A stretch of DNA of 64,000 nt from Takakia lepidozioides (lineage: Eukaryota > Plantae > Bryophyta): NCBI GenBank assembly GCA_030704615.1, contig CM060733.1:69502001-69566000 (forward strand). Reading direction: 5' to 3'. This document shows, one piece after another, positions 10,132-52,133 of the stretch. Position 1 is the stretch's first letter; each line of letters starts with the position of its first letter. A model generated the notes under the pieces. That model did not search any database, was not told the origin of the DNA, and saw only the letters and a program-made list of their open reading frames with translations. Made by a program: the position numbers and the translations under genes.

Positions 10132-12835
10132 TTATTCTACCCACACGCAAGGATCATGGCGAAGCATTGCACTGGCCTCGTTCATACTCAAAGTAGGATA
10201 ATTAATTAAGGGGCTGTCAGCACAACAGCGGAGACGTCGAAGAAAAATCCAGTAAATGTGCTTGCAATGGGTGTACCCTTCCTTCAAATTGCGCATCTTC
10301 ACAAAGTTGGGACATGTGCAGTCTGGGTAAATGCCAATTGAGACGTAATAAACCTGCCCGTTGGTCGCTGAGCTGGAAGTACTGATGGTGTAAACTCTTC
10401 CCATCCCCGGTCGAGGAACATCACGGAAGCTCTGAACGATACCTCGCAGCGACATCGCCAATCCGACCTTCGTCCTATTAAGAGCTGTCTGTTTTTTGTG
10501 GTTATATTGCTTGCCCCATCTGCATTTGGGGTAATAGTCCCGATTCTGATGAGTTGCGGGCTGGTGGGCACGAACGTCCTCCTCCATTTGAAATCGTGGG
10601 ATATCATCCCTCGGGACCAGGCAAAACCCGGCTACATCCAATGAGTTAACTTCCTCCTGAGTCGAATCTGTTCCTGCCATCACAGGCCATACCTGTGGTG
10701 GCTCAGGTCTGTCCTTCGCATCTCGGTGGACTCCCCCACAAACACACTGTTGAATGTCTTGAGGACAAAACCAGAACTCATGCAATTTCGGTTTTGCAAA
10801 AATTGGGTTGTGGCACATTCCAATGTACTTCGGAGCTGGGATGCCAGACGATTTCGAAGGATGGATCTGCTGCTTACAGGGCTGCCCGCTATCAACCCGA
10901 ATACCCCAACATTGGGCGCGTGACAAGTCCGTTGTTCTTGCAATAGCAGTGGACACTAAAGTCTCCAACACTGGTTTTCCGTACTGCTGTGGAACACCAT
11001 TGTAGTTGGGAGCTGCCATGTCATCCTCCTCATCCATGTCCTCCACATGCACTCGGGAGCCACCTGCGCCTAAAGCCCGCCTCGGTCCAGTCTGCATGTT
11101 CATATCAGACCGCCATGAATGCTGATCCTCCTCCTCATCCAGATTGTGGATGAATATCTTCCTCTTTGTTGTGCGTGTGAGAAGGTCACCTTCCAAGCCG
11201 CCCGCACGGTTATGCAGTGGTGTTCCAACCACAAATGTCTTGAGAGCCTCCGCCATTTTCCTTGGGTCACTTGACCTCGATGCCGCACGCACCAGCAAAT
11301 CCTCTCGGCTGGGTCCAACTCCTTTTCTGCCCCCATTAAGGAACAAACGGTACCCGGATGTCTGCAGGCACGCACGCACAATATCATGTCGTGTTGCCAT
11401 GTACATGTCCGACTTCACGGAGCCACTCCCTGCTTGCCAGCTCGCATGAATCGATTCTGAGATATTCACATTCGGCATGTCCGCGTCCTCCTCCAAACTG
11501 AGTCCCTGAACAGAACAAAAACACTTGTAAGATGGGAAGTCGGCACATGAGACTTGCGTGGCGCCGGAAAATCAAAATGTACATACATGCCTCTTTGGAC
11601 TACTCACTTATAGGACACGGGAAGTCGGCACAAGATTACAGACGTGACTGGGCAGACAAACGGAATAAACATACTGGAAAGACGACACCGACATCCCCGT
11701 CAGTACTCCGGCGACATGGAGCTGGACGTGGGAAGTCGACACATACTTACAGAGGGTTGTGGACACAGAATCAGAAAACCACAGTGGTAAATCAGCACAG
11801 ACTTCCCGGTTTGCACATGGGAAGTTTGCACACACGCAAACGTGCCTGGGCACAGTGGCACTCCACTGACAAGTCGGCACAGACTTCCATGTGACAGAGA
11901 AGGACGGGAAGGCTGCACAGAGTTGCACTGGGTTCGGGGAACAATATAGTAATAGCACAGCGGTAAGTCGGCACAGACTTCCCTGTCTGCACTCCCGGAG
12001 CATTGCGATGGGAAGTCGGTGACTTAAAGAGGTGGCTGGACACACTGTCAAAATAGCCAATGCAAAGTCGGTGCAGACTTCCTTATCACGCACCAGGCAT
12101 GCATGATGCCGGAGGTGGGAAGTCGGCACAGACTCCCCGAGCACCGTCCAGCTGGCCCGCTGCATTGGTGTTTTCTGTCGGCGGCAACTCGTACACAATG
12201 TCCCCATCTACTCTTCTGGGTAAATGGTTCACCTTCACTATTTGAACACTGTGAAAGTCGATCCTAGAAAGCTCGCTGCGGGATGTGGTGCTGGTGCGTA
12301 GGAGCTGCAAGATGTCCACCATTGAATTTGTAACCGCATCTGCGGGTGTGGGAGTAAACACGTCGGCATCCACCTCATGTGCATCGTCGTCCTCCATGGT
12401 GTTTGCGCGCGTGCGCGGAGGTGCGGAGTGTGCTCGTCTGCTGCCAACCACCATGCAGTCCTCATCCTCCTCACTCAATATTTGAATACTCTCCGTCTTT
12501 GCAGGACATGGGCCAAATATGGATGCGGCAGTCGGTGCAGTAAGGTATGCCAACACACTCGACGATGATGCTTGCTGGCCATATACAATGTATTGTTGAC
12601 CTGTTTCGTGTGGAATGACATAGGCCCGCGCAAAATCATTTCGTTTAGGACTGACAATCCGAGTTTCCACAACGCCATCCTCTCCCACCTCCTCGACTTC
12701 GAAAACAGCCGTCCTAGGCTGCAATGCAAACCGAGATCTGAGAACCTTGTCTGCGAATATCACCGAACCATCCTTTGCTTCCACTCTTACAGATGCATTT
12801 GCAGATGGACAGGTTAGGCGAACGCACTCAGCCAT
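10132..12835 (-). pseudogene. SWIM zinc-finger, Mutator-like transposase-related gene, middle apparently missing
   Basis: SWIM motif YYVSIGIYPDCTCPNF...CKHIYWIFL. NISESIHASW resembles the MULE catalytic-Glu segment. N-terminal ORF at 12086-12835; the intervening DNA is rich in the palindromic repeat. Confidence 0.6.
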
Positions 12836-14109
12836 GTTGACAGTGACAGAGTAGAAGGTGTGCTCTGAACAGAGTGCAAGTACAAACAGAATGATGTCAG
12901 TGTTTGTATGTACATTGAGAAATTTGAAATGGAGCGGTCCTTGTCCACCACTTTCCAGGTGGCGCAGCTTTGGCCTTTAGCAAACGACATTCTTCTGGCA
13001 TTTTCCAACGGCAACTTACCTGTCGGAATCCGCGTAAATCCCTAACATTCCGACTGTTTGTTAGAAGTCTGCAACGACTTCACGGCAGTGCAACGTATCC
13101 TGCAGATAGACCCACGAAGTCTGTCGTAGCCGTTCAAAATGGAACCGGCAAGTCGGTGCATAATTGCCTTTGAGCACAAGGCCGCAAACCGCAAAAGAAC
13201 CCGCAAAAAATGTGCAGCCCACTTCATGATGTCTTCTTCGGAAATGAACCTGCCAGAAGTCTGCGCCGACTTCTGAAATGGTCTGACGGAATGTAGTTTT
13301 CGTGTAACGTGGACGCATGAAAACGGCAAGTTTGTGACGACTTCCGGCATTTTCTGACGAGAATCTGTCGAAATATGCCTAAATGGCCTGCCGGGACTCA
13401 GTTTTTAGGGGCAGGCATGAATATAACGTCCAAGTCGGTGCTGACTTGCCGGAAATGCACTCCCGGCGGCCGCGAAAGTCCAACTTCTGGCGGACTAACA
13501 GCAATGTCACCGGAAAGTTTGTGCCGACTTCCCGGAAAACCAACGGGCAGTCCGCACATGCAATGTCAGGCGTCGAGGCTGCCCTTAGATTTGGGAATAG
13601 ACCAGCCGGGAAGTTGTCACAGACTTCCCGGCAATTACCCATTTTCAGGCGAACATAATCCGGGAAGTCTGGGCAGACATCACCGGCAAGTCTGCACAAA
13701 CTTACTGCAAAATTCCACATTCAGGCGCTACGTGTGACGTTTTGCGGCACTGCACGTGTCGTGTGGTCACACGTTGGGGATTGAAGTGCCGGGAAGTCTG
13801 TGCAGACTTGCCGGAAATTGTGCGTTTTCAGGTGATGACTACGACCTTTCAGGCAGCGCACATGTCGATTAGGCACCCATTGGGGCCTACGATGTTAGTG
13901 GCGCATCCTCGAAATGCCTTCCAGAAGCGTTGCCGCGAAGCGACTTCCACCAAGCCGCCACTTTCTCGTCTTCCGCCAAACCGCCTCTTTGCTCCCGCAC
14001 CTGCTCCTTCGCTTCATCGCTCAGTCTGCCCACGCCTTCTGCCCCTCCGTGGATTGCAGCAGTACGTCGCAACGCTTTTGGAGAGGTGCTCCCGGTTTTT
14101 TCAGCAACC

Positions 14110-14413
14110 ATGGAGGCTATTGGTGAGGACGACCCCGACTTTCAGCTTGAGAGACCCTCGCAGAGACCCTCGCAGATGGTGCTAAGGACCCACACCATTG
14201 TTTCCAGTTCGCAGAGCAGCGAGCAGGCACGCGGGCGAGGGAAGGCGCGGGGGAACACCACGAAAGGGCAATCTAGATCTGCAGACGCCTCCGCCCCATC
14301 CTCCTCTCGGCAGCAGAAATCAGATCGCTCGCCCATGTCGGTATCAAACCGCTCGTCGCCGGGAGCAGGGAGCTCGCACAGGGGTCAGCATGCCAGGGGT
14401 CCAAGAGCGCCTG
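14110..14413 (+). pseudogene. 5' part of ParB-like TE gene exon, disrupted by the Gypsy insertion
   Basis: ATG at 14110. Removing 14414-26012 restores the frame ...PRAP-GVDVVLTAERR. Confidence 0.75.
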
Positions 14414-14500
14414 TGTCGTGCGCATACATATCGCTACACAACTACATCGCTGTCCAAACCACACCATACATATATGCACAATAAAGTAGTCTGCCACAAT
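14414..14500. repeat. Terminal repeat A (87 bp), outer copy
   Basis: Identical to 14850-14936. Confidence 0.95.
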
Positions 14501-14847
14501 GATAGAAATCCAACGAACACACTGTGACACAAAACATGAAAACCAAACCATCACTCTTAGAAAATAGTAGTCGAGCCAGGGGCACCCCAAGCTATGGGGA
14601 CTCCACCCCACAACAACCTGTACCCCTACATAAGCACACTCAAATCTAAACACATGCAGGAGCTCGGTCGCGCAGGCTCAACTCGAGAAAGATGAGCCGC
14701 GCGACTGCCGCTCTCGTGAAGATAAGACGGACCAGGTGTCAAACTAAACTTGACACCTGATTTAACACTTGACCTAAATCCAAGTGTTAAATACAAATAA
14801 CTAGTTTTATTCTAGCTGTTTTCACACTGTGCTTATTTAACTTGACA
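14500..14847. repeat. Terminal repeat B (348 bp), inner copy
   Basis: Identical to 25661-26008. Confidence 0.95.
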
Positions 14848-14849
14848 GC

Positions 14850-14936
14850 TGTCGTGCGCATACATATCGCTACACAACTACATCGCTGTCCAAACCACAC
14901 CATACATATATGCACAATAAAGTAGTCTGCCACAAT
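14850..14936. repeat. Terminal repeat A, inner copy
   Basis: Follows repeat B through a 2-nt GC linker (GACA-GC-TGTC). Confidence 0.95.
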
Positions 14937-14946
14937 CGCCCCCCTA
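14937..14946 (-). promoter_or_regulatory. Polypurine-tract-like sequence
   Basis: Minus strand reads TAGGGGGGCG immediately before the inner A' copy, downstream of the integrase stop. Confidence 0.6.
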
Positions 14947-15194
14947 GCTGGTGGATAGGTCCCTCTACCTCCAGATAGCTACAAGATGTAATAGCCACAG
15001 CCGTACTAAGTCCTCTATCACTGTCCCTATTGTACTCAAACTCTATAGACCAAGAGGCCGGGTACAAGAGTAGCCCCATCGTTAGTCGCCATCTTGCAAT
15101 CTGTGAACTTGAGCCAGGACCTCGTGTGTTCAAGGTCTCCTAGTAGCTGGGCCTTGCGTTGCTTGTTAGTCTCCCATGGTTGTATCCACTCCCA

Positions 15195-17010
15195 CTATCC
15201 AATGCATTGTGGACATAACCAATCCCCATCTGGAACCATCTCAAGAGGTGGAGTCAAGCACCCCATATGCCAACCTCTAGAGCATCGATCACACACCAGC
15301 ATGGTGGCTGCCCCTTTAGCAGACCCACACAACATGCACCTCAAACCTGCAGATACCACTGCCAGGTTTGGGTCAATCCTGCCATCGACATTCGGAAGGT
15401 GACATGGCGCACAATTACGCACATGGTCCTTCCAAGTTATGCCATCCCGACCCTCCAAGACCAAGACGCCTGAGGGCAAGACCTCTCGAACCCTCAAAAT
15501 AACACGTCCTGCAGTCACATCCAGGGTCGTAGGAGCAGTCTGCTGCAGATAGACATAGTCACCAGGGTTGAATCTCCGAACCCCAGGACGATAGCCCCCA
15601 CCACGTATGGTAGCATACCTCAACGTATCACGGTGTTGTGCAATGGCAAGGTTCTCGAAAGCCATGGGCATGACTCTCTTGAACAACTCTGCACGCTGCT
15701 CACATGCACGTGCCCACACGTCCGGATCGTCAAGGTTAAGAACTGTAGCAGCTTCTCTGCGAATGGATGTAGGCAAATCCGGCTCTCGGCCAAAGAGAAG
15801 AAAGTATGGTGAGAAGGAGGCAAGTGATGCTTGCTTGCTGAACCTGTAGCCCATGGCTAACCAGGGTAACTGAAGGTCCCAATCTCCTAGGTGTCCCTTC
15901 TGCAAGCCATACTTGCGCAAACCCCTCTTTACTGTCTGAACAACTCTCTCTGCCAAGCCATCGGCTTCAGGATGATCCCGAGAAGTGGTGCGGTGGTCTA
16001 TCAAGGCCTTGTCACACAAAGCCTGAAACTCCCCCAAGAACTCTCTCCCTTGGTCCGTGAGTACCTCAGCTGGAGCACCGAATCGGCTAAGCACACAATC
16101 CAGGAATGCATACGCAGCTCCCTCACTAGCCTTATCAGGCAATGGAACCAATTCAATCCACTTGGAGAAGTGCTCCACCATCACCAACACGTACTTGTTG
16201 TGGCGCATGGTCAGTGGCAACGGCCCTGCGAAGTCAAGACTCCACCTGTAGCCCAATCCCATGATCGGAAGAGGGTGCAATTGTGGAGTAGGGGCGTTGA
16301 ATGAAGCACGCACCCTGTCACACACCATGCACCTAGCCACAAATTGTTGCACCTCTGTGTGCATACCACGCCACCAATACTGCCCCTGCAGTAGACTATG
16401 AGTGCGTCGCACCCCAAAATGCCCCAACTCCTCATGGGCATGCCGCACTAACCGTGCCCGCTGTGTTGGGTGAGGCACAATCCTCACTCGACCATCCTCC
16501 CACACTCGGAGCAGGTGTGTCCCCTCCCACCTGAACCTCTTGGCTCGTTGTAGGATCCGATCCCTCTCCTTGGCAGTCATAGTGGCTGCCGTGTCTCCAC
16601 TGCGGAGGTAGTCCAACACAACTGAATCCTCATGTATATCTTTGGCGCCACCCTGCTCATTGCTGGCCTCAGGGTCCTCAGACACTTGATCTACAGTCAT
16701 CCCTGTTGTAGGTCCAACCTGGCCTTCCGCTGCCAAGATACACAGAAATGCAGATGCATGCCATCCGGGCACCATCTCCTCGTCCGTCTCACCATGCCAC
16801 CGAGCTCCAGTGTCATCCTGCTGGCTCGTGCATGGATTGCGACTCAACCCATCTGCATTTCGATTGACCAAACCCGGTCGATGCACCACCTGAAAGTCAT
16901 ACTCTTGAAGGATGAGTGCCCACCGTGCAAGCTTCCCCGTAAGCTTGTCTGACTCCATCAACCACTTGAGTGGTTGGTGATCCGTGACAAGGGTGAAGAG
17001 ATTGCCGTAT
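15195..17010 (-). CDS. RNase H C-terminus, DDE integrase and C-terminal PHD finger
   Basis: TDHQPL; HHCC (HEELGH...CMVC); DFAGP/TDQG/LAER catalytic triad; C4HC3 CMLC...CDRC...WHMGC...WLCPQC. Confidence 0.95.
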
Positions 17011-18330
17011 AATAGCACCTGAAGTGTGCCACGGCCCACACTGCAGCTAAGCATTCTCCCTCATATGAGCTATACTTAGACTCTGCAGCATTGTTCGAGC
17101 GGCTAGCATAAGCCACTACGAACTCTCTTCCCTCATCATCCACCTGTGTGAGCACCGCTCCAAGCCCCAGCATGCTCCAATCTGTATGCAGCTGAAAAGG
17201 ACGCCCCCTGATAGGTCGTCTCAAGATGGGCGCCGAGGTCAACCTCGCCTTGAGCTCTTGAAAAGCTTGTTCTTGCTCATCTTCCCACTGCCACTCCTGG
17301 TCCACCTTGGTCAGCTTGGTTAGAGCCTTTGCAATGGCACTAAATCCCTTAACAAACCGTCTGTAATAGTTTGCTAACCCCATGAAAGCTCGAACTCGGC
17401 TCACATCCGTGGGGCGTGGAACCTGTGCAATGGACTCTACCTTAGTCTGCTGTACCCCCAATCCTCCAGGATATATCATGTGACCCAGATACTCAATCTG
17501 GTTGTGGAAAAACTTGCACTTGCCCGGATGTAACTTCAATCCGTGCGTCCTCAAGCGCTCAAATACCCCCTGAAGGTGTCTCTCATGCTCCTCCACCGTA
17601 GCACTAAAGATGATGATGTCATCTATGTAGCACCGAGCAAACTCCACCCCTGCTAGAATCCTGTCCATGACTCTTTGAAACTCAGCGGGAGCGTTTTTAA
17701 GCCCAAATGGTAAGAACCGCCACTGGTATAGGCAATCCTTCCCGTGCTCATTGATCCCCCAGAATGCCGTCTTTTGCTTATCCGCCTCCTTGATCGGCAA
17801 CTGGTGATATCCGGATCGTAAATCCAACGTGCTAAAGACCTTGGAATGCCCAATGGCATCAAAGATCTCCTCTGGTGTTGGCATGGCATACCTATCGGAC
17901 TTGGTCTGACGATTTACAGGCCGGTAATCACCGCACATACGTCTCTCCGTCCAATTGCCATAGACATCCTTCTTAGCTGGCATCACTGTGGCTGAAGCAT
18001 ACTCTCCACCAGAGAGCTCCACCAAACCTGCCTCCCAGAGATCTTGAGTCCTCATCTGAATCAAAGACCTCTCCATGTCACTGTATCTATAGGGTCTCCG
18101 AAAGATTGGCGTGTCAGTGGCCAACTCAATACGGATCTCTTGACCCTTCAGTGCTCCCAAGTCCTTCAAACTGAAGGCAAAGCAATTCCTATAAGCCCTC
18201 AGGAACCGCCGTATACGTCGTCTCTCTCCTCCGGTGACAATGGGTCCAATGTCAGGCTCCCAATTGTCCTCCGTAACTGCAACCTTAAGTCCAGTGGGCT
18301 TAGAGGTAGAGGACCGTCCCGTGGTTGCTA
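17010..18330 (-). CDS. Reverse transcriptase and RNase H
   Basis: [38 protein letters not shown]. The frame is open upstream of the annotated start at 18169. Confidence 0.95.
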
Positions 18331-19494
18331 TGCTGCAACCTCTTGAGCAGTACCCCCTTCCTGCTCAGTCAATGACAAGGCCTCATCCTGCCCCATCATC
18401 TCATCATTGAGAACCTCCTCATCCCGAGAAGAATCCCCAACCTCATCCATCACAGCTGCCTTCGCTGCCAACTCCCTCTGAACCTCGAGCACCTCCCACA
18501 TGTGCCATGGATGTCTACACCTCGTGGTCCTCACCGGCTCGCCCCCACTCGCTGCCTGTACCGTCTCGGTAGGCAGAGAGACCGTCAAGGGAAGTGCACT
18601 CCGCACTCTACGTTGCTCAGCCATAGCCAAGCTGACAATCCAGGTCAAGCAATTGAGATCCATTGCTTGCCCCAACACCTGACGACGTGATGCCTCAGAA
18701 AGAGAAGGCACCGCCGTGGTCCCAGTGGAAAACCCCATAGCCCGCTCTCGCTCGTCGGCATTAGGCTCCACTAACTGCTGCAACTGAGCATCCCACAGGA
18801 GGCCAGGTCCACCATCCCGAAAAGCATGGGATCCTGGGAAGCTGAGCAGTGTAGGTAATGCTGCTCGTGGTTGACCCACCCTGTTGACCACTGCCAAAGG
18901 CGAACGGTCATCGTGTCTCACACGTTGAGACTGCCTTCCTGTGTCCAAAATGCCATCCACGGTGAGGTGTGCTGGCCGCTGCACCCCATCAAATGCACGC
19001 TTGAGCAGTGCGGGTGGCATCAAGTTAGTCCACCATAGTCGTGGACGATGAGCCCGTGACCCCACTGCAGCTGCATCCAGCAACACTGCTGACCCAAGCC
19101 ACGACCGGACTTGATGCACACTGGCCATCACCCTGGCCCGAGAATCACCCATCAGTGGTACATTCTCCAAGATGTATGCTGGAGATACAGCTTGATGAAG
19201 CTGCAAGCAGCGCAAAATCCGCACCATCTCCCAAAACAGACCCGTCCTCGAGTCTCGCAATCCATTGCCATGCCCGGCTGATGAATGCCCTTGGCAGGGC
19301 CAACCTGCCACTATCAGATCAATGGAGCCAACCTGCTCCAAATCTTGCGCCCCCAACAAGGAAATGTCTGCTGGCAAGGCTTGTTGGTATCCACGAACTG
19401 CAGACACAGGCAACAAGTCAGGGTACTGCTGTACCAACTGAGCCACATGGCGCAGTGAGACACGTCGTGCAGTCTCATCCCTCTCCACATACAA
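18328..19494 (-). CDS. C5-cytosine DNA methyltransferase domain within pol (motif I missing in this copy)
   Basis: Motif II YVERD; IV IDLIVAGWPCQGHS; V GLRDSRTGLF; VI ILENV; VIII AHRPRLWW; IX ERERAMGF; X VLGQAM. Confidence 0.92.
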   Translation of the reverse strand: MYVERDETARRVSLRHVAQLVQQYPDLLPVSAVRGYQQALPADISLLGAQDLEQVGSIDLIVAGWPCQGHSSAGHGNGLRDSRTGLFWEMVRILRCLQLHQAVSPAYILENVPLMGDSRARVMASVHQVRSWLGSAVLLDAAAVGSRAHRPRLWWTNLMPPALLKRAFDGVQRPAHLTVDGILDTGRQSQRVRHDDRSPLAVVNRVGQPRAALPTLLSFPGSHAFRDGGPGLLWDAQLQQLVEPNADERERAMGFSTGTTAVPSLSEASRRQVLGQAMDLNCLTWIVSLAMAEQRRVRSALPLTVSLPTETVQAASGGEPVRTTRCRHPWHMWEVLEVQRELAAKAAVMDEVGDSSRDEEVLNDEMMGQDEALSLTEQEGGTAQEVAA

Positions 19495-20270
19495 ATGCCT
19501 TCATCCGGCCGCTGCCACACAAGAGGTGTGGTGTCCAATGGCGACAACTGAGGTGGCCCTGGTGCAATCACCGCACTCTCCTCCTCTCTTGACGGTACAA
19601 AAGCTTCTTCCCAAGCTTGTTGCACCCGTCCATCAGCAGCTTGCTGCAAATCCTTGCTCGTACCCCACAACGGAGTGTGAGCAACCATGGCAGGCAACTC
19701 CGCCGTACCATGCATGTCATCCTGCTCTGCTGGAGGTGGCACATCCTCTGCATGGGCATTGCCTTCCAGCAACTCTCCAGGCCAACTAACGGCAGCTGTG
19801 AAGGCGGCTAGTGTTGGCATCTTGCCCCGCTGGGCAGCTGCAATACCCCCAATGAATGTCACAGGGAGCTGTGCACGGCGACCATCCCCTGACTGCCATC
19901 CAGGCCTGTAGGATGCTGACTCCTCCCAGAAATCCAGGGTGAAGCCCATGGGGTATAACACTGCCCCACCAACGAGGACATCGTAAGAGACCGCGTCTGT
20001 CACAATGGCCTTGGCTCGCATCACTGAGCCATCTACAGGATGATCCGGCTGCAGTCTAATAGCCAACTGATGTCGTGTCATGCCGCGAGCCTGCTCTGAT
20101 CCTCCCAGAGATGTCTGTATCTGGAAAGGACAAGGCTCCATATCCGCCTCCATGAGGCCCAAACCTGCAATAGCAGCTCTGCCCAACATCAGTGGCTGAG
20201 CTCCTGAGTCCAACAAGACCCGCAGTGGCCGGTACTTCTTGCCTGCCGGTCCACTCAAAGTGAAAATGCC
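19495..20270 (-). CDS. Aspartic protease
   Basis: VLLDSGA catalytic motif and YDVLVG. Confidence 0.85.
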
Positions 20271-22450
20271 TCCTGGTTGTCTAACAAGACAACTCCAGGT
20301 GTCACCATGGCGCGCTCAATGGCTGGCCTAGCTGGCAGCTCCGTCAACCTGGCAGCTGCAACTTGCCATGGCGCAGCCGTGGCAGTCTTGACCCTCAAAT
20401 CCGAGGATCCCTCTGCCACTACACCTTCCACTAACTCCGCAGAAGATGAAGTGACCTCCCCACTCTCACAGAGTGTTGCTGCTAGTCTGAACACTGCAGC
20501 TGGTCTCACCCCCGGCGTCGCAATCATTGTTGCCGAGAACAGTGGGGCCTGACACACAGAGGTGGCTACCCCCAATAACACACCGGCCGCACTAGCCTTG
20601 GCAGCAGGAGTCAATGCTGCACGTGTAGCTCTCCCCAATGGCATAATAACCTCCGCCTCGGTAACAGTCGGGCGAGAACTAGGTGCCATGGATGGCGTCG
20701 ACACAGTCTCCGCCAATGTGAATGACTGAGGAAGCCTTGCCTGACGGCTTGCCTCCCCACGCTGTGGATCCAATTCCACCTCTGCACCTCGTGGCTCAGG
20801 AACTCGTGCTGCTCCTCGAGTCACGGCTGCAGCAGACTCCACCTGCTCTAGTGGTAGTGCTGCTCCGCACATAAATCCCATGCCTCCCATATCTCCTCCC
20901 TCAGGAGCAGGAGGTGGACCATCCCGCCTGGGAGCCGGTACCGCCTGAGCTATAGCCATGGCAGCGAGCCTCTGCTCTAGCTGCTGAAGCCGGTTGGCCA
21001 TGCCTTGATCAACGCCCTGACCACCGCGTCCTTGGCCATGTTGAGCTTGCCCTTGGCCTGCACCTCGTGCCTGACCACCTTGTCCTCTCTGGGCTGGTCC
21101 ACCTCGCCCCCGGCCACCATTGTTCCCTTGGAACTGGCCTGGGCGCAACTCAGGATGCAAGTCATAACACTGGGCATCTCCATGCCCATACTTGCCACAA
21201 TGCACACACTGCAACTGTGCAGGCTGTGCTTGTGCTGGCCTTCTGCCACTCTCTGGGCAATCTCTCTTGACATGGGGTCCTCCACATGTCCAACATATCA
21301 CCCCTGGTTGCTGTTGGCCTGCAAAAGATGCCACGGGCCTCTGCACCTGAGGTCCCCTGTAAGCTCCATGGAACTTGGGCTGGGCAACCTTGCCCCCCTG
21401 ACCACGCTGTTGGGCAGTCCCTTGTGCCTGTGGGCTAACAGTTGTGCCCCGTACAGGCATGTCCTTGCCAAATCCAATTGTAACAACTCGCTCCTCCACC
21501 ATGTTGAGCTCAATCCGCTCAGCCAGTAGAAACACATCTGTTAATGTGGGTTGGGCTGCTTGTAACAGGGTTGCATCTCGCACCCTTCTCTTGAGCTCCT
21601 TGTCCAGAATTCCATACCAAAACTGGATTGCCTGAGCTTCAGTAACCCCTTGGGTCACACTTATCAAGCGCCTCATACGAGTGTACGCCTCTCGCAGGCT
21701 CTCACTGGGTTTGCGCTGGAAGTCTTGCAAACTTCGCAGCTTCTCTGTCCGTACACCTTGGTAGTTCCTCCGCAAATCCTGGAAGAACTCCACCACCGGG
21801 TTGAATCTAGGCACATGTGTTGTAGTCGTGGCAGGAGGAGTAGTAGCACCTTTTGAACTGGTACCACCTGCAGAAGTACCAGCACTACTTGCTCCACTAC
21901 TAGTGCTGGCAGTGGGAGCTATTGGTACTGATGTAGCTACTGGTCGCGTCGTGCCTCGAGTAATGGAGACGTAGTCAGGTGACCAATACATCCTCCACTC
22001 CTCAATCTCTGCTTCATGTCCTCGCCTGAACTCGTGGTAATCGTCCATAGGCGGGCCTTCCAAATGCTGGAACAGTCCCTTCCACGCCATGAATGGGGTG
22101 AATAGCTGTGGATTGCGCATCTGCTGCAAATCACACCAGCTGTCAAACTCCTGGATAAAGTCATCCAACTCAATTGTGCCCACAGCTCCAGAGTACCTAC
22201 GAGGCCCCTTGGTAGCTCCATACATCTCCTCCATGTCGTCCCACAACAATGGCGAATGAAAGTGCACACTTGTTGATGAAGCCTCCGAGTCTGTGTCTGA
22301 CTCTACAGTAATTGAAGGTGGCGGTGAAGGTGGTCTGAACCGAATACCTCGTCTTGTGAACCCACTCTCACTGTTACTGCCTGTAGCCGTACTCCCCTCA
22401 AAACCCTTGGGTAACTCCGTAATGACACTCACAATGTGCACCTCCTCCAC
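20255..22450 (-). CDS. Gag with two CCHC zinc knuckles
   Basis: Capsid-like FQRKPSESLREAYTRM; knuckles CWTCGGPHVKRDC and CVHCGKYGHGDAQC. Confidence 0.88.
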   Translation of the reverse strand: MEEVHIVSVITELPKGFEGSTATGSNSESGFTRRGIRFRPPSPPPSITVESDTDSEASSTSVHFHSPLLWDDMEEMYGATKGPRRYSGAVGTIELDDFIQEFDSWCDLQQMRNPQLFTPFMAWKGLFQHLEGPPMDDYHEFRRGHEAEIEEWRMYWSPDYVSITRGTTRPVATSVPIAPTASTSSGASSAGTSAGGTSSKGATTPPATTTTHVPRFNPVVEFFQDLRRNYQGVRTEKLRSLQDFQRKPSESLREAYTRMRRLISVTQGVTEAQAIQFWYGILDKELKRRVRDATLLQAAQPTLTDVFLLAERIELNMVEERVVTIGFGKDMPVRGTTVSPQAQGTAQQRGQGGKVAQPKFHGAYRGPQVQRPVASFAGQQQPGVICWTCGGPHVKRDCPESGRRPAQAQPAQLQCVHCGKYGHGDAQCYDLHPELRPGQFQGNNGGRGRGGPAQRGQGGQARGAGQGQAQHGQGRGGQGVDQGMANRLQQLEQRLAAMAIAQAVPAPRRDGPPPAPEGGDMGGMGFMCGAALPLEQVESAAAVTRGAARVPEPRGAEVELDPQRGEASRQARLPQSFTLAETVSTPSMAPSSRPTVTEAEVIMPLGRATRAALTPAAKASAAGVLLGVATSVCQAPLFSATMIATPGVRPAAVFRLAATLCESGEVTSSSAELVEGVVAEGSSDLRVKTATAAPWQVAAARLTELPARPAIERAMVTPGVVLLDNQEAFSL

Positions 22451-22969
22451 GTGACACTATAAGGCTCTAGTACTAATCTAATAGTGACACGGGTGGGCAC
22501 CTGTTGCAGATTAAGGGTCGTATCACAATGGCTCAGGGCACCTGCACCTGCATCCACCGCAAGAACTCCTATGGTTGGCTGGTCATCAACCCAGTCTCAC
22601 CATAGAAGAAACACTGGTGGTCTTGCTGGTCATCACTCCAGCCTCACCACCGACAACATACTCTAGGATTGACCGGTGATCAAATCCGGCCTAATCCCTA
22701 TGAAAGCAAGCGCCCACACAAAACCAACATGGCGCACAGTCAAGCATGCAGGTGTTGGGGGGGATCCAAACACAAGAAATCAAAACATCAACACCCCCAC
22801 ACCAAAATCCAGCTGCAATGCTGATCCTGCAGAATATCCCAGCCCAAAACCCCGGACTGACTGGCCTCCACCAAGAGAGGCTTTGGCAACTACGAGTACA
22901 AGATAATGAAAATAGTACAGAGATGGAGGGGAAGAATAGAAGTTCGCCCAAGCAAGATCTAATCCTGAT

Positions 22970-23719
22970 CTATGCTATCAACTTCCAGACTTCTCTCAAA
23001 GTGCCTCGCTCTGCGTGATGGTAAGGTGTAGGAGGTATATCTATGTCCAGAAACCTGCCACTAACCTTGTCCCAAGCTACAGTAGCTCGCTCTAACCAAC
23101 CCTCCCCCTCTTTCTGCCAGGTAGAGACAAAGCAATACTCCCCTATCTCCCGCTCACTGAACACTAAAGAAAACAAAGGTAGGGTCTGATAGTCTCTCAA
23201 CTCAAAAGCTTTGAGACGGTTGCGGGTGTCTTCATTGCGAATGACTGCATCGCCTTCAAACAGAACAAACTTGTCCTCGCTAATGAACCCCCGCTCGTGG
23301 TTGCCTTGTGCAGAGCGTGTCCGACTGCAACACTGTCTAATTGCACAAACTTGTGTAGCTCCTGCTCCTCTGCTCCAGTACACCACGGCCTTGTGACTGA
23401 ACACCTTGGTCCCCGGGGCTGTCTTTGGCTGTGTTCCAAGCCTAGCTTTCACCCACTTTGGTATTTCACCTACAGCTGCAGAACTGCTGGCTCCAACAGA
23501 GTTCTGACTGTCCAAGGCGATATTGAGGCCCTCAATGCCAACTACAGCAGTTTGTTGTCTACTGCTAATGCCTGACTCCCAGTATGCAATCAACTCGTCC
23601 AACTGTTCTCCACTCAAATCAGTCTGAGTTCCTTGGGAAACATAAATCTTGTCCCCTTTGGTGCACAGGCTAAGAGAAGAGACCTGCCCTTCAACGACGT
23701 CCTCATTTCCCCCAGCCAT
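22970..23719 (-). CDS. Additional 249-aa ORF of unknown function upstream of gag
   Basis: Intact ATG-initiated ORF (GTATGG context), co-oriented with gag, with globular-looking composition. Confidence 0.55.
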   Translation of the reverse strand: MAGGNEDVVEGQVSSLSLCTKGDKIYVSQGTQTDLSGEQLDELIAYWESGISSRQQTAVVGIEGLNIALDSQNSVGASSSAAVGEIPKWVKARLGTQPKTAPGTKVFSHKAVVYWSRGAGATQVCAIRQCCSRTRSAQGNHERGFISEDKFVLFEGDAVIRNEDTRNRLKAFELRDYQTLPLFSLVFSEREIGEYCFVSTWQKEGEGWLERATVAWDKVSGRFLDIDIPPTPYHHAERGTLREVWKLIA

Positions 23720-24566
23720 ACAAGGAGTACATCCACAGATTTGTCTCTAATATAGACCAGCACAGGTTCTAGAGACAGGATTGTGGATCTTTCATGGCAC
23801 ACTCACACTCTAAAAATTCCATAGATTTTTAGCAGAGTCCCAAAAACAGAAACCAGGTCTAGATAGGTAGATTTCCCCTTTCTGCAGCTATCCCCTCAAA
23901 AACTGGGTCAAACAGAGTCCATTTGACAAAGATATGACCAATTTGGCTTTACATCATTTAAATTAGATCAAAATGCCCTGTTTTTTTTTTTTTTTTTTTT
24001 TGAAGGTTTTCAAATTTAAAAATTTAAAGTTACCCAAACTATCTGGTAACTGGTTCCCAGTTCCCTACGTTCTATATGGTTTCCTAGGTTCCCTGGCCAC
24101 GTGCCCTATAATTCGCACCTTGCTCCAGTCTTCTGCATACCGAGAGTGAGAGAGAGAGAGAGAGAGAGGGAATTGTGGCACTCAGTAGTGTCTTGTTGTG
24201 AAAGAGAGTGGATTCCGTGATTGCTTGCAGGCTTGCGCACCAAGAGAGGGGGAGGAAAGACATGTTTATGGACATGTTTATGGACGCCATGTACAGGCGA
24301 GGGGTCACTCACAGTCTGCTTGAGGCCTTGGTGGCTAACGATAAATCACTGAGGAGGATTACCAGCGGGAAGCACTGGACTTTGTGCTGGAGCTTGCGGG
24401 TCCCCGGCCCATTCCAGTTACGGGGGAGAAAGCCCTGGCTCCTGAATCGCCCGTCTATCCCCAGCGTAGCTCGGCTCCGCCGTTCCCAAACCCGTCGTCT
24501 CCATCCTGCAGCTGAAACTCTAGCACTTTTGTGAATGTGAACTGCTTACTGCAGGGAAGTGGGTGT

Positions 24567-25000
24567 ATGGGAGCATTCGAGTCCATGGATGCAACACCGC
24601 TTGATCAGGTCATCAACGATGCAATTGACTGGAGTTTCCGTAAGCAGAATCCAGAGGGCTATTGGGCGGGCCAGGTCGAATCAAGCTGCTCGGCGCCCAG
24701 TACGTCCGCTGCCGCTCGACTTTTGTTGTCATGAGCTCCATGAACCAGAGGACATGAAACAACGTCAAAGCAAGAAAACTTCTCTTTCAAATCTCGCCAG
24801 ACATGTCTGTGAAAGTTTATTCCTCTACTTCGACAAGTTCCTCATATGGTATGGTAAGAGCCGTTCCAAGCCTGGCCGTGAGGTGGCCATCGTATGCTGC
24901 TTGGCCTGGATCCTCCGGCGACAAGATTTTGACGGCACTTGTTGTGGTGTACAACCTCCTTGGGTGTACTCGTTGATGGCGTTGAGCTATATATCGCCTG
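24567..25000 (+). pseudogene. Captured squalene-hopene cyclase fragments
   Basis: QNPEGYWAGQVES (N-terminal QW repeat) fused to RPVRPLP...FDKFL...REVAI...WILRRQDFDG..GVQPPWVYSLMAL, matching the SHC QxxDGxWGGIQPPWVY motif. Confidence 0.8.
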
Positions 25001-25647
25001 CTTACTGTAGGGAATCAGGCCAGAGTACGTTCGTCGTTCGTTTCTGCTGAATTGGTCAGAAGACAATTCCAAGCCCGGAACCTAGGGCGCATACAATGCA
25101 GCAACCCCAAGAACGGAAAGCGCAAAGTTCTGCTGTTGGCGAGGCTCCATAGCAACCATATACACGGAACTCCGTCCTCTGCGCATTGCGAAGAGGATGC
25201 CGCTTTTCTGCTCCATAGCCCTGCCCCTTAACCCGCTGCATGGCGCTCTTGCATGATCAAAGCAAATGATTGACAAAGAAGCTGAAGCTAAATTTTGGTC
25301 CAAGACCAACCCCGATACAAGAATCAATTGCAACAGCAGGCTCCTCTATAAGCTTACTGGTGAAACGATCATCCAGCTTCAAGGATCATGCATAGGTGCC
25401 AACTAGCATTTGCTGCTGCATTTTTAAGTATCTCCTTGTGTACCCCAAAGCCTCTAGTGACTTGGTAGCTTCAGCGACTGCAATAACAATGGCGGCTCTG
25501 GCATCGTCATCCTCCAGGCGTTTCAGGGCACGCTGAATCTTGTGGTCACATTCAATGATATGCTTCTCAAACTAATCACTACTTATACGCAGGTAATCTT
25601 GCAAGTGCTAACCCTCAACTCCTACCTTGCACTCACAGGTAAGAGAG

Positions 25648-25661
25648 CATCTTTCTCGAGT
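25648..25661 (-). promoter_or_regulatory. Sequence at the PBS position, complementary to the element's own repeat B
   Basis: CATCTTTCTCGAGT (25648-25661) is the exact reverse complement of ACTCGAGAAAGATG (25842-25855). No TGG tRNA-type PBS. Confidence 0.65.
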
Positions 25662-26008
25662 GATAGAAATCCAACGAACACACTGTGACACAAAACATGA
25701 AAACCAAACCATCACTCTTAGAAAATAGTAGTCGAGCCAGGGGCACCCCAAGCTATGGGGACTCCACCCCACAACAACCTGTACCCCTACATAAGCACAC
25801 TCAAATCTAAACACATGCAGGAGCTCGGTCGCGCAGGCTCAACTCGAGAAAGATGAGCCGCGCGACTGCCGCTCTCGTGAAGATAAGACGGACCAGGTGT
25901 CAAACTAAACTTGACACCTGATTTAACACTTGACCTAAATCCAAGTGTTAAATACAAATAACTAGTTTTATTCTAGCTGTTTTCACACTGTGCTTATTTA
26001 ACTTGACA
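25661..26008. repeat. Terminal repeat B, outer (5') copy
   Basis: Identical to 14500-14847; ends in GACA followed by TSD CCTG. Confidence 0.95.
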
Positions 26009-26012
26009 CCTG

Positions 26013-26562
26013 GCGTAGATGTGGTGCTCACTGCAGAGAGACGGGAGAGAGCTCTAAAGATGTTGAGAGACAGCGCCCTGAAGCACACCTACAGCTCCGT
26101 TTCCCATCTTCTCCGAAAAGGCCACCCTCCACGTATTCCCCTGTGCAGGATGAGGACGCTACCCGCTGTTCGGCGAGCTGAAAGGCCCGGGGTAGAGAAG
26201 CTGAAGCTTTTTTTTGAGAGAGATGGGTACAACGACGCCCTTGCGTCCTTTCTGCTTGCAACGAACAACACCGCAGGAGTGGCTTCCACCGTCACGGCCG
26301 AGGATAGAGCGACCTGGGACATGCATTGGCAGGAGGAGGACCGCTGCTTTGAGGAGGCCATCAAGGGCACCACCTGGGAGTTATTGAGCAACCAATGGTT
26401 GTATATCTATGATGGCAACCACCACTACTTGGCGTGGATAGATGTGATAACATAGCAGCATGCCGACGACCCCGAATGGCACTATGCAGTCAATGCAAAG
26501 ATTATGGATGTGAAACGAGAGGACATCGCTTTGGTCAGAAGGGCCATGAATCGCATGAACAT
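26013..26562 (+). pseudogene. 3' part of ParB/Srx-like domain exon
   Basis: LYIYDGNHHYLAW resembles the ParB-fold DGxHR motif. One internal TAG at 26453; GT donor at 26563. Confidence 0.6.
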
Positions 26563-26952: not shown

Positions 26953-28472
26953 CTTGCGGCCATCTATGACCGCTCCGGATTTGCTCAGAAAAGTCATCCC
27001 CAAAATGAGATCCACTCCATCGATCTCGCAAATGGTGAAGTTCTCACGTCCCTCCCAACTCCCGAGCTGAAGAGGAACTTTGAACGCCAACCTCGTCGCC
27101 AATTATGGTTCTCTTTTGGCAGAATGCACCTCAATAGAGGCCCCCACATCACTTGTCGGGAGCCCCAGCTTTTGTGCCGTTGCCGGTGTCATGAAAGAGT
27201 GCGACGCTCCTGTATCCACCAACAACGACACGTTAGTTCCAAAAATTATCCCGCTCACGAACATTTACTGACTCCCTTTATGCAAGGGGCCAGTCTCCTG
27301 GTACAACTCACAAAAGTAGTTGCTTACCTTGCAAGTCTTGGCGACCACCGCTTCCACCAAGCGGCTGATGGAATCTTCGGACAGCTCCGTGGTCGCCCAA
27401 GTCATGTTCAATTGTCGGGGTTTCGTGCACTTCTTGGCCATGTGCCCGGGCTCCCCGCAATTAAAGCACACTCCATCGAAGGTTACCTTCTGTCCGCCAT
27501 AAGCAGCCGCACCTGATTTTCCTTTCGGAGCACCGGGTGCCGCCTTGACGTGTGAAGGCCCTCCCTTCGATTTCCATGTGCCATTGTTGTTGCGTGGCCT
27601 ATCCCACTTCTTTTCCGGGCGGAAGGAGTCACCCTCCCGCCGGGTCTTCTTGTGGATCAGCTCCATACGGCCTTGTCTTTTGCCCCTAGGGACATCCGAG
27701 AAACATTCAGCCCTTTCAATTGCCTCGTTCAAAGTCTTAGGTGGTTTCTCCTCCAACTTCCGCCTGGCCCATGGGGCCAGTCCTGCCACAAAGTTGAAGA
27801 CCATTTCCGCGACTTTGAGCAACAACACATTGAAAGCCTGAACATATCCCCGAATGTCATCCATTTGCTTCAAATTCCTCATCTTGTCCCGGGCGAGCCA
27901 GGACGTGTTGAGGGGCACAAATTGTCTTTTCATAAGTTTCTTGAACCCACTCCAGCTCAAGGTTTCTGGGTCTGGACCTTGGTCATGAAGGCGTTTCTGC
28001 CACCATTGTTGAGCATAGCCCCTCAAATAGGTGGGAGCCACTTCCACCCAATCCTCGTCACTCAACTTGGCTGCCCGGAAGTACTGCTCCAGCTCCAAGA
28101 GCCAGGTATTGAGTGTCTTCCAATTTTGGACACCCTCGAAGGTGTTGGGTTCCTTAGGCTTCACCTTAAACTTTGCCTTTGTGGAAGTGGCATTAGCCGC
28201 CCTCAACACGTCTTTCAACGTCCCGCCAAACTGCGCCAACAACCCTCCCCAAAAGGCTGCTGGCATGGGAGGCATCTGTTGGTCTGCCGGAGCCTCCGGG
28301 AAGTCCTCGGGCTCTGACTCCCCAGAGTCCTCCCGTTCTTGAGCGGCCTTGCTTTCAAAAGCATGAATTGCCTCCTCAAATTGCCGCTTTGGTGACACGT
28401 CGCATCCACCAGGCTCACCAGGATCATCATCTTTCGGGCCATTCCGCTTTTGCTTTGGCTTGCCCGACCCCA
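26953..28472 (-). pseudogene. Chromovirus Gag and protease
   Basis: EPNTFEG...WL, LRGYAQQWW, CFNCGEPGHMAKKC; LVDTGAS after a stop; DLILG. Confidence 0.85.
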
Positions 28473-28510
28473 TGACGAGGTCGATCTCAAGGATTGCGTA
28501 CTGAACTCTA

Positions 28511-28523
28511 AGCTCTGATACCA
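28511..28523 (-). promoter_or_regulatory. tRNA-iMet primer binding site
   Basis: TGGTATCAGAGCT lies 2 nt from the LTR end ...CGACA (28526). Confidence 0.9.
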
Positions 28524-29008
28524 AGTGTCGCGTACCTCACTTCGGTAAGCTCCCCTTCAAGTTATAGTTACTCGCTTTGATGCGCGCGCCTAACTCCCAA
28601 AGTGGTCGCCGGGCCAACTCGGAGCTTCAGTTGCTCACCGGGACATAACGGTCCCCCTTTGCTCCTCCACAAGACCCTCTCTCAATTTGGGCCTAGTGGA
28701 AATTCCCTTTGGTTGTTGGCAGTCCGGAACAGCTCCCCACACCTTGGTCGTTTTCCGGCTCGCACGCTTACTCATTAGTTTTTGGTCACCAACGGGCTTG
28801 CACCGTTCTCGGGATTACTACTCCCTATATATACTTTTGTGACTGTCCGCGGGGGTTTCACAAACAACACCATCCTTTTATGGCGAACCACCATGAAGAC
28901 CCTCCGTTCCCGGTGGTGAGTTGCGGTGAGTCTTGGCCCACCCACCACGGCCCCATTGGACCGTGACGAGTCCCAAGACTCCCCTAGGAGCCACACGAGC
29001 CCCAATTT

Positions 29009-31890
29009 TTGCTTTACGTAAGACAAACGGAAGGAGAAGACGATAGGGAGCCGAGCCCAGACTGGATCAAGGGGATCTCGGAGAAATACCAGGATGTGAT
29101 GCCGGAGGATTTACCAAGCGGCTTGCCACCGCGAAGAGGAGTTGACCACAAGATTGAGGTGATACCGGGATCGGAGCCGCCTGCCAAGGCGCCCTACCAG
29201 TTGAGCCACAGAGAGTTGGTCGAGCTGAAGGCCCAGCTCAAGGATCTAATGTCAAAGGGGTACATCCGGCCAAGTAAGTCACCTTACGGAGCCCCGGTGC
29301 TATTCGCAGACAAGAAGGATGGGACGTTGCGGATGTGTGTCGATTACAAGGCTCTGAATAAAGTGACTATAAAAAACCGGTACCCTTTGCCAAGGATCGA
29401 CGACCTCTTCAATTGGTTGGCAGGAGCAAAGTATTTCAGCCGAATCGATTTGCGCTCCGGCTACCATCAAATCCGAGTGGCGGAAGGAGATGAGGAGAAG
29501 ACCGCGTGCAGGACAAGATATGGTTCATATGAGTTCTTGGTGATGCCTTTTGGGCTCACCAATGCGCCCGCGACCTTTAGCACGCTAATGAACAGCCTTT
29601 TCCAAGAGTGGTTGGATGACTTTGTGATCGTGTACATCGATGACATCTTGGTGTACTCGAAAACAAAGGAAGAGCACCTTGAGCACCTCAAAATGGTGTT
29701 CTATAAATTACGGGAAGGGAAGCTGTATACCAAAGCTTCAAAGTGCAAATTCGGGGTCACAAAAGTGGAGTTCCTAGGGTATGTGATTACACAAGATGGG
29801 ATCAAAATGGATGACAGAAAGATGAGGGCGATCTTGGACTGGGAGCCTCCGACTTCGGTCCCGGGAGTGCGATCCTTCCTAGGACTCGCCTCCTATTACC
29901 GAAAGTATGTGAAAAAATTCATCAAGATCGCGGGGCCGCTGTCGGACCTTCTGTATAAGTCCAAGGTATGGGTGTGGAACACCTTTTGTGGCCAAGCTTT
30001 TGCCGAGTTGAAGCAGCGGATGGCGGAAGCTCTAGTCTTGAAAATCCCGGAGTTCGACCGTCCATTTGAGATTCATACAGATGCGTCGGACTTTGCAATT
30101 GGGGGTGTGCTCATGCAGGATGGACGTCCAGTGGCTTACGAAAGTAAGAAACTAAATGAAGTGGAGCGACGGTGGCCTACACACGAGAAAGAAATGAAGG
30201 CGGTGGTGCATATCCTTGAGCTTTGGCGCCACTATGTTGGTTCCAACCCGGTGAAGGTGTTCACGGACAATGTCACAGTGAAGTATTTTGCCACGCAGCC
30301 TAAGTTGTCCCCAAAACAACTTAGGTGACAAGACACTTTGGCACTATTCGACGTGGATATCCAGGACAAACCGGGACGGGACAATGTGGTGGCCGATGCT
30401 TTAAGTAGAAAACAACAACTCATGTTGGTGTACAGGGGCGACGACGCTCCAAAGGAAGATCCGGAAGGATGAGATGGTGAAGTCCGTGATACGAGACTTG
30501 AGGATGGGGGTTAAATTGCAGTTCCACTTGCACAATGGACTACTCCGGTACAAGCGAAAGCGTCTCTACGTGCCCAAGGGAGGGATCAGAGATAGTTTCT
30601 TGAGAGAATGCCACGATGGCCCGCTTGCGGGCCACGGCGGAGCCAAGCGCACCGCGACACTCTTGAAGAAAGAGTATTTCTGGCCCAAACTGAGGGAGGA
30701 GGCCGAGGAGTATGTCAAGACATGCACCACATGCCAACAAAACCGGAACGAGTACAAAAAGCAAGCGGGGCTGTTACAACCCTTGCCGATTCCAGAGGGA
30801 TCTTGGGAAAGTGTCTCGATGGATTTCATGACTGCTATGCCGCTGTCAAAAGGATTCGATGCAATCATGGTGGTGGTGGATAGGTTCAGTAAAATGGGCC
30901 ATTTCATTCCCACCAAGGAGACGGCAACAGCACAGGAGACGGGGCGACTTTACTTCGCCCACATCTTCAAGCATCATGGACTTCCGAAGGATATTGTCTC
31001 GGACCGCGATCCAAAGTTTACAAGTAAATTTTGGATGGCACATTGGAAGAAAATGGGGACGAGGCTCAAGATGAGCACCGCTTTCCGACCTATGACGGAC
31101 GGCCAAACGGAAAGAGTGAATTCCGTGGTGAAGCAGATCTTGCGGAATTATGTGTCGTCAAACCAATCAGACTGGGTGGAGCACTTGGATGCAGCAGAGT
31201 TCTGTTATAATAACACAAAACACTCCGCAACGGGAGTTTCCCCTTTCGTATTGGTCTATGGAAAAGCACCTTTGGTGCCGACAAGTTGGGCCGCCCAGGA
31301 AGTTGAGGAACCGACAGCAGCGGCGGTGCTGGAAGAACGCGAGCGTGTATTGGAGCTCGCAAAGTACAACATTGCCAAAGCTAGGAAACGGTATGAACGG
31401 CAGACGAATCGAAAGCGGAGGGAAATTAAGTTTGAGGCAGGCACGGAGGTCTGGTTGAACATCAAGAATTTTTGACTACCTCCGGAAGTGAGTCCGAAGT
31501 TTGTACCTCCGTATGCGGGGCCCTTTCGCATCCGGAAGGTCATAAATGAGGATGTGTATGAATTGGAGCTGCCGGCAAATAGCAAGGTGCATCTAGTATT
31601 CCACGTCTCCTTTTTGGAGCCTTACTTCAAAGATGAAGCGCGTCCGAATCGACATCAAGTGTTGCGTCCGCCACCTATGCTGTTGGATCATGAAAATGAA
31701 CCTGAGTACGAGGTGGAGGCAGTGCTTAAGTCGAGGAGGTTCAAGAATCGAGAAATGGAGTATCTCGTGAAATGGAAGGGCTATCATCAAGTGGAGGCAA
31801 CTTGGGTGCGTGCCTCAGAAATGAGAAACGCCATCCGAGGCGGTTGCAGCTTTCGAAGGGCGACCTCAAAAGCGGAAGAAGCGTTGATGG
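29009..31890 (+). pseudogene. Chromovirus pol (RT, RNase H, integrase, chromodomain) with stops and frameshift
   Basis: YIDD, TDAS, HHCC, SMDF/SDRD/QTER, GPF, EYEVEAVL...YLVKWKGY...ATW. Stops at 30326 and 31473. Confidence 0.93.
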
Positions 31891-31921
31891 TGACATCAAC
31901 CTTGGAGCGTGGGGGAGGAAA

Positions 31922-52130: not shown

Positions 52131-52133
52131 CTA

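Follow-up and report, generated by a model that had tools for sequence, protein, structure and literature searches.

Ty3/Gypsy retrotransposons that carry a DNMT3-type C5 DNA methyltransferase (DNMT) were described, as KnitGypsy-Dnmt3, in Klebsormidium nitens (de Mendoza et al. 2018, PMC5890265). According to the accessible text of that paper, these elements have a Gypsy domain set within DIRS-like repeats, they show purifying selection, and the kind, its repeats included, is described in Klebsormidium only; the accessible part of a 2025 survey (PMC12344493) points back to the same work. Here we analyse 64,000 nucleotides of Takakia lepidozioides (contig CM060733.1, positions 69,502,001 to 69,566,000; the window), whose minus strand holds an 11.6-kb Ty3/Gypsy element (14414-26008) with a homologous DNMT3 domain and, as in the Klebsormidium element, the order protease (PR), DNMT, reverse transcriptase (RT), RNase H (RH), integrase (INT). 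Unlike KnitGypsy-Dnmt3, it resides in a land plant, has a very high copy number, and its DNMT ends the first open reading frame (ORF1) ahead of a stop codon instead of lying in a Pol ORF; it also carries a C-terminal PHD finger, which was not found in the partial Klebsormidium model. For its target-site duplication (TSD), palindromic attachment site and self-priming, we found no description concerning KnitGypsy-Dnmt3 in the accessible text of PMC5890265. A literature search, with most subscription papers, Repbase and the main supplement of PMC5890265 outside its coverage, returned no land-plant report of such elements and, within the same limits, none of a stop after the DNMT, a TSD, the palindrome or self-priming; the words 'methyltransferase' and 'Marchantia' occur 0 times in the available text of PMC6317226. 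Taken as a whole, our account seems reasonably probable: a young, defective copy of the KnitGypsy-Dnmt3 clade, from a family in which a readthrough stop would yield capsid-level DNMT that methylates the element's cDNA.

The assignment to Gypsy, made earlier from the letters of the window alone (hereafter the sequence-only reading), holds, as the domains follow the order Gag-PR-DNMT-RT-RH-INT with a DDE integrase, and the TG...CA ends, TSD and polypurine tract (PPT) of LTR retrotransposons are all present. The same reading had proposed a C5 methyltransferase, and the minus-strand ORF at 18328-19500 indeed matches PF00145 with 50.7 bits (cutoff 22, E 2.3e-13), flanked on that strand by a protease ORF (19314-20315) and an RT ORF (16958-18364). 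Within the domain (18331-19500), motifs IV (GWPCQG), VI (ENV), VIII (HRPRLWW), IX (ERERAMGF) and X (LGQAMD), in what we take to be the standard numbering of C5-methyltransferase motifs, are intact and keep the canonical order that had been claimed; motif I (binding of S-adenosylmethionine, SAM) is missing from the window copy. When an intact homologue (P0005) was ranked against PDB sequences, human DNMT3A came first (E 4e-11), ahead of DNMT3B, DRM (1e-6) and HaeIII (5e-5). A structure predicted from a 61-sequence alignment for P0100, a natural homologue with 74% identity to the window domain (pLDDT 93.5), gave 34 listed Foldseek matches, all 34 to DNMT3A, B or C (best E 1e-18, TM 0.83 by target length). 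The motif order is unrearranged, in contrast to DRM. Judged by sequence comparison and predicted fold, the domain is a DNMT3-type C5 methyltransferase, DRM and the bacterial enzymes being more distant. In 23/23 aligned proteins its catalytic PC and the glutamate of ENV are unchanged, and clustering of its relatives at 50% identity yields 230 groups, with E up to 1e-30. Over about 285 codons, dN/dS is 0.07-0.26 in those 13 of 21 pairs that escape saturation and 0.12 in the sole low-divergence pair (L027/L028), and third codon positions hold 6 of the 9 variants listed within 19380-19493 (positions derived by hand). These values indicate that the DNMT has been under purifying selection in the family.

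The sequence-only reading had also pointed to the Klebsormidium Gypsy enzymes, and the domain turned out to be a feature of a whole family, present in Marchantia, Calypogeia, Sphagnum and Klebsormidium. Among the 50 longer homologues, Marchantia polymorpha contributes fifteen named proteins (59-73% identity), mostly annotated as 'hypothetical', and Calypogeia fissa and Sphagnum fallax contribute one each; a profile search adds three Sphagnum species and K. nitens KFL_009030040, which is 45% identical across 65% of the query. Of the 190 matches of this search, the 120 listed include no named protein from ferns or seed plants. Since KFL_009030040 is homologous and has the same PR-DNMT-RT-RH-INT order, the element belongs with KnitGypsy-Dnmt3, as the accessible text of PMC5890265 presents it. 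On these comparisons, the family is probably a land-plant branch of KnitGypsy-Dnmt3; it stands unannotated in Marchantia, Calypogeia and Sphagnum. A quick DNMT tree groups the window with Marchantia, Calypogeia and Sphagnum (SH-aLRT 100), Klebsormidium being more distant; this tree and the RT tree were built without proper outgroups, and the latter lacks locus L051. That the host is a land plant, as had been supposed, is supported by a host gene at 60040-60675 (minus strand) for a DNL/Zim17 zinc finger (PF05180 in its homologues), whose best named matches are Diphasiastrum (77%), ferns (74-75%) and Sphagnum (72%), and which is placed in neither the fern nor the seed-plant clade by a weak tree of 102 columns. 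The gene thereby suggests a seedless host, and one that is probably no fern.

In a second large clade, made of proteins without species names, the DNMT lies between RNase H and integrase, and 14 proteins read RT-RH-DNMT-INT-PHD. Sister-clade members with this placement are P0035, P0039, P0041, P0045 and L051 (2-4732 and 5883-12342); L051 keeps the palindrome described below, and its second ORF (more than 2100 codons) has no Pfam match. Apparently the DNMT has changed its place in the polyprotein. Among viral contigs, no relatives were found with the query P0004, and the profile gave weak phage or bacterial methylase matches only. The sole strong match in GTDB, L081, is in a cyanobacterial metagenome-assembled genome; it is a complete eukaryote-type element, which we treat as probable contamination of the bin from a eukaryote and do not count in favour of a bacterial origin.

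The sequence-only reading described the DNMT as embedded in pol, and on this point it fails. The domain terminates at a TAG (18330-18328) followed by CAA CCA (together 18322-18330), a UAG-CAR-YYA signal of the type found in tobacco mosaic virus (TMV); in relatives, a stop with CAR is in frame with RT. Because this conserved stop ends ORF1 (Gag-PR-DNMT), the DNMT is not simply part of pol, and since it lies outside the ORF of RT, the window element is a variant of the KnitGypsy-Dnmt3 clade. We examined 64 related loci (L001-L063 and L081), of which 32 hold an anchor at the RT N-terminus. In 31 of these 32, a TAG or TAA followed by CAR stands at a fixed, in-frame distance upstream of RT (L029 has TAC). 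The 29 distinct sequences comprise 15 TAG CAA CCC, 6 TAA CAA CCC, 3 TAG CAA TCA, 2 TAG CAG TTA, and one each of TAG CAA CCA, TAG CAA CCT and TAC CAA CCC. A single moss-type family accounts for 23 of the 29, so the independent lineages, the window included, number four; they are separated by near-saturated synonymous distance. The full CAR-YYA context, which is essential for TMV readthrough (PMC2754532), is present in three of the four lineages (the window, L003 and the L027 group), and the moss-type family matches at 5/6 positions. L027, L038 and L081 have a single stop followed by a 1047-codon RT-INT-PHD frame, and in L027 and L081 the first methionine of ORF2 is at residue 117, beyond the conserved RT N-terminus. 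From motif X to the protein end there are 92 residues in Marchantia, 94 in Calypogeia (both known from proteins alone) and 94 in the moss loci.

We hold it highly likely, from this conservation, that Gag-PR-DNMT is the main product and that RT-integrase is made by readthrough. An in-frame stop that sets the ratio of structural proteins to enzymes is also reported for Tj1/Tosmo (10.1101/2022.12.06.519325, PMC6317226); there, as far as those sources are accessible, it is a TGA between Gag and PR, and here a TAG or TAA after PR-DNMT. The type I signal of TMV shares the six-base context (PMC2754532), but in our case it stands in a retrotransposon and readthrough is predicted. Several observations weigh against readthrough as the general rule. 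The stop sequences come mostly from the moss-type family just mentioned, which has CAA CCC in place of YYA and an ATG directly after the stop, so that reinitiation is possible there. Moreover, P0102, P0112, P0191 and the Klebsormidium gene model have no stop between DNMT and RT, PR-DNMT-RT being one ORF. As the stop is limited to a clade, and the second clade places its DNMT between RNase H and integrase, DNMT at the level of Gag is not required clade-wide.

The body of the element is not flanked by two complete long terminal repeats (LTRs). Its layout is instead A-body-B-A-B, where repeat A (348 bp) occurs as A1 at the 5' end (25661-26008, TG...CA) and as A2 (14500-14847), and repeat B (86 bp, with a CA end) as B1 (14850-14935) and as B2 at the 3' end (14414-14499), all on the minus strand. 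A PPT (14936-14945, minus strand) abuts B1 upstream, and therefore B+A is the LTR; an AGGGGGG run ahead of B is also present in moss-type loci, L027 and L081. The element begins with TG at 26008, ends with CA at 14414, and lies between 4-bp duplications of CAGG (26009-26012 on the 5' side, the same bases at 14410-14413), with the flanking ORFs (13873-14484 and 25952-26455) in register on either side. The open frame that it interrupts (13873-14413 and 26009-26455, plus strand) is probably that of another transposon. Among six elements with both ends, the TSD is exact at 4 bp in five, and in L024 it matches at 3/4 bases. The complete A-body-B-A-B layout recurs in L032 and L045, and in part in L001, L011 and L059. 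Two loci (L013 and L024) are A-body-B; we rejected these as evidence for one-LTR circles, since recombination between B1 and B2 yields the same form.

At the B|A boundary (14844-14853) lies a palindrome, GACA-GC-TGTC, which occurs once in the window, contains symmetric CHG sites with a flanking CG, and is the predicted internal attachment site. It is exact in L001, L032, L038, L051 and L081, has one-base variants in L011, L027 and L059, and two changes in L045. The element ends correspond to the two halves of the palindrome less its central dinucleotide. Extra bases at the A2|B2 joint number none in the window, one in L011, L032, L045 and L059, and 16 in L037/L039, the 16 starting with sequence of the primer binding site (PBS); such a variable joint looks like joined cDNA ends. 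Probably, given these end structures, the two ends of a B-A-body-B-A cDNA are joined to each other, and the integrase then opens the molecule at the upstream palindrome. Foamy virus integrase cleaves palindromic circle junctions (PMC1180852), and junction cleavage in two-LTR circles of HIV and foamy virus is the subject of further reports (PMC1905944, PMC4372172). The likeness, a DDE integrase with a palindromic CA-nn-TG site in continuous DNA (PMC1180852), extends here to a predicted cut; in these viruses, however, the palindrome is the end-to-end junction, whereas in the window element it has a constant place within the LTR, apparently used as the normal route. A point against this scheme is that the mirror product, A-B-A-body-B, is found in 0/14 loci with a 5' A, which the circle model leaves unexplained.

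Split repeats of the DIRS type on a Gypsy body are what PMC5890265, in its accessible text, ascribes to KnitGypsy-Dnmt3. The A...B-A-B layout and a carried methyltransferase are shared with DIRS/PAT/Ngaro elements, SymbioDIRS-Dnmt3 among them. Those elements integrate by a tyrosine recombinase, and generally do so without a TSD, whereas a DDE integrase and TSDs of 4 bp mark the window element; no tyrosine recombinase was found among its Pfam matches, which include an rve integrase instead.

No tRNA-type primer site, with its TGG, was found after A1. The 13 bases that abut the CA end of A1 (25648-25660, the predicted PBS) are a perfect reverse complement of A1 positions 154-166 (25843-25855), the predicted self-primer and likely 5' end of the transcript; both are on the minus strand and paired in the minimum free energy fold, and 0/300 shuffles reach this match. 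The match spans 15 nt in L027 and 12 in L081 (0/200 shuffles each), and in moss-type loci, with a different sequence, at least 9 nt pair at offset 0 in 9/14, up to 16 nt. Primer and PBS covary, their sequences differing lineage by lineage (window, moss-type, L027 and L081). This pattern makes us confident in a self-priming of the Tf1 kind that would replace the tRNA primer site, despite the absence of the match from L051 and from 5/14 moss-type loci, which counts against it. The pairing of a self-primer with an LTR-adjacent PBS is as in the self-primed chromoviruses Tf1/sushi and Tcn1 (10.1101/2022.12.06.519325, PMC6317226). As far as these sources extend, Tf1/sushi and Tcn1 have a chromodomain and ordinary LTRs, whereas the window element has a PHD finger, split repeats and no chromodomain.

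The sequence-only reading supposed recent activity. A1 and A2 are identical at 348/348 positions and B1 and B2 at 86/86, and the insertion is therefore very recent. Summed contig depth over the element is about 1000-fold above that of its flanks, which reflects high copy number and is not a count of copies. In comparison with intact homologues, the window copy lacks motif I (FxGxG), as about 70 bp (some 23 codons) are deleted at ~19493 with a shift of frame; a motif-I pattern is present in 37/50 homologues. Because of this deletion and frame shift, the enzyme of the window copy is, on its predicted translation, dead. Contigs from the same organism's sequencing runs diverge from the window at 19492-19495 into motif-I-coding sequence, and assembly error is an unlikely cause of the deletion. 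It may be the cause of the single-base frame breaks near 20271, 18314 and 17011, which many other contigs of the same runs lack. Given the loss of motif I and the four frame breaks in total, the window copy was probably mobilised in trans by intact members of the family.

From these features we propose the following cycle for intact members. Transcription would begin inside A1, and the first 12-16 bases of the RNA would pair just after A1 and prime RT, as in Tf1. Most ribosomes would halt once the DNMT is made, and the remaining few would continue through the stop into RT-RNase H-integrase-PHD. Self-priming and the PPT would lead to a linear B-A-body-B-A cDNA, whose ends would be joined A|B, in a two-LTR circle or by an end-to-end jump of RT; the DDE integrase would then open the upstream LTR at its GACA-GC-TGTC and join both CA ends to the target, duplicating 4 bp, to give A-body-B-A-B. 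The DNMT, packaged with Gag in capsid amounts and freed by the protease, would meet the extrachromosomal, probably circular, cDNA and methylate its cytosines, probably in CG, ahead of insertion.

Methylation of the element's own new cDNA is in our view the most likely job of the DNMT, although we favour it with modest confidence. SymbioDIRS-Dnmt3 methylated CG, but KnitGypsy-Dnmt3 left yeast DNA unmethylated, a result that its authors call inconclusive (PMC5890265); this speaks against it. The CpG observed/expected ratio of 0.44-0.55 in the element, no more strongly depleted than the host background (0.38-0.48), favours neither side. The enzyme might be functional with another target, such as chromatin at insertion sites (reached via the PHD finger), genomic copies or the element's RNA. 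Expression at the level of Gag, which would create a large excess of free enzyme, and the PHD finger on the integrase agree with this, and RNA methylation and insertion-site effects were raised in PMC5890265. We nevertheless think it unlikely, since the DNMT of the main product is not fused to integrase in the stop-bearing clade, DNMT3-type enzymes, which the sequence and fold matches indicate here, generally act on DNA, and the products of a Ty3/Gypsy polyprotein are carried into the particle, where the DNA within reach is cDNA. Less likely still, the DNMT could be the modification half of a pair resembling restriction-modification, its methylation shielding genomic palindromes or picking the cut site in the circle. 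This purely inferential proposal would fit a palindrome kept across both DNMT architectures (L051 and the PR-DNMT type), the CHG and CG sites at it, the single product type without mirror forms, and the methyltransferases that split-repeat elements of the DIRS type also bear (PMC5890265), while DNMT3 enzymes hardly discriminate sequence past the dinucleotide and integrase is normally confined to its own cDNA.

The identity of the repeat layout with that of DIRS elements (PMC5890265) further raises the thought of a copying route like that of DIRS/Ngaro, from a transcript that runs through B2 and without a two-LTR cDNA, the stop being bypassed by reinitiation, for which the ATG in the moss-type family would serve, or by splicing. 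The lack of a tyrosine recombinase among the Pfam matches, the 4-bp TSDs with TG and CA ends, the PPT ahead of B1, the PBS after A1, the PBS bases kept at the A2|B2 joint and, for reinitiation, the position of the first methionine in L027 and L081 make this quite improbable. As to a decaying passenger, a captured fragment of a host DNMT3 without a role in the life cycle, the window copy could suggest one, having lost motif I and seemingly captured a piece of a host gene in its leader. This idea is largely refuted, and we give it very little credence, because Klebsormidium, liverworts and mosses all have the domain at one and the same place, with the invariant PC and E, a dN/dS well under 1 and the many clusters of relatives.

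The remaining parts of the element are as follows. The Gag part of ORF1 (20273-22234, minus strand) has CCHC-like knuckles, 52% identity to residues 1-616 of Marchantia Mp_4g09160 and a weak PF03732 match (E 0.006, under the cutoff). The aspartic protease (LLDSGA) and a linker follow at 19494-20272 (minus strand; weak PF13975/PF13650, frame break near 20271). ORF2 encodes RT (YIDD) and RNase H at 17012-18327 (minus strand; RVT_1 E 8e-33, RT_RNaseH_2 E 5e-31), with breaks near 18314 and 17011, and, at 15195-17011 (minus strand), the end of RNase H, the integrase with its HHCC zinc domain and the C-terminal PHD finger (Integrase_H2C2 E 2e-16, rve E 4e-14, PHD E 2e-10), the D, D and E residues being found in the translation. 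The leader contains a low-copy insert (23981-25630, plus strand, boundaries approximate) with poly-T, (GA)n and broken coding pieces of a squalene-hopene cyclase (PF13249, E 3.6e-14 at 24541-25047, plus strand); summed contig depth drops about 1000-fold over 24000-25300, and the insert looks like a captured fragment of a host gene. A further leader ORF, in the high-copy part (22970-23746, minus strand, 258 codons), had no Pfam match and no match among the fetched loci and proteins.

Elsewhere in the window, a chromovirus-type pol with RT, integrase and chromodomain (28988-31946, plus strand) lies within 28526-33507, a region bounded by 459-bp inverted repeats (97%), and is adjoined on the opposite strand by a gag (27265-28536), the whole being a rearranged element. 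A 1.5-kb inverted repeat (50616-53838, 96%, 182-bp spacer), whose LTR-like sequence is also found at 31817-33507, could be a source of long hairpin RNA. Degenerate tandem arrays occupy 36060-37070 (G-rich) and 54825-56100. The ORF at 10132-11571 is presumably SWIM-like, by its motif, and 37865-38362 (plus strand) we take to be a COG8-like first exon of a host gene; neither has a Pfam match.

Why some retrotransposons carry an enzyme that silences them has been an open question since 2018, in part for the reason that the known hosts, dinoflagellates and Klebsormidium, are hard to manipulate. Close relatives of the element exist in Marchantia polymorpha, which offers genetics and transposon-releasing met1 mutants, and so the question becomes testable there, with the probably leaky stop predicting the dosage of the enzyme. 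From the structure of the ends, the integrase of the element would seem normally to act on a circle, a form that in HIV is usually regarded as a side path and in retroviruses generally as a side product. Elements that lack two full LTRs probably escape LTR finders, and annotations of bryophytes can mistake the ORF1 of such elements for host DNMT genes. Camouflage, protection and self-limitation are candidate benefits of the DNMT to the element. Tentatively, these elements may represent an old Gypsy clade of green plants that probably still moves in seedless land plants, Marchantia among them, and would integrate routinely from circles cut at the palindrome, with a leaky stop giving capsid-level DNMT3, so that copies would arrive pre-methylated and methylation may steer the choice of palindrome.

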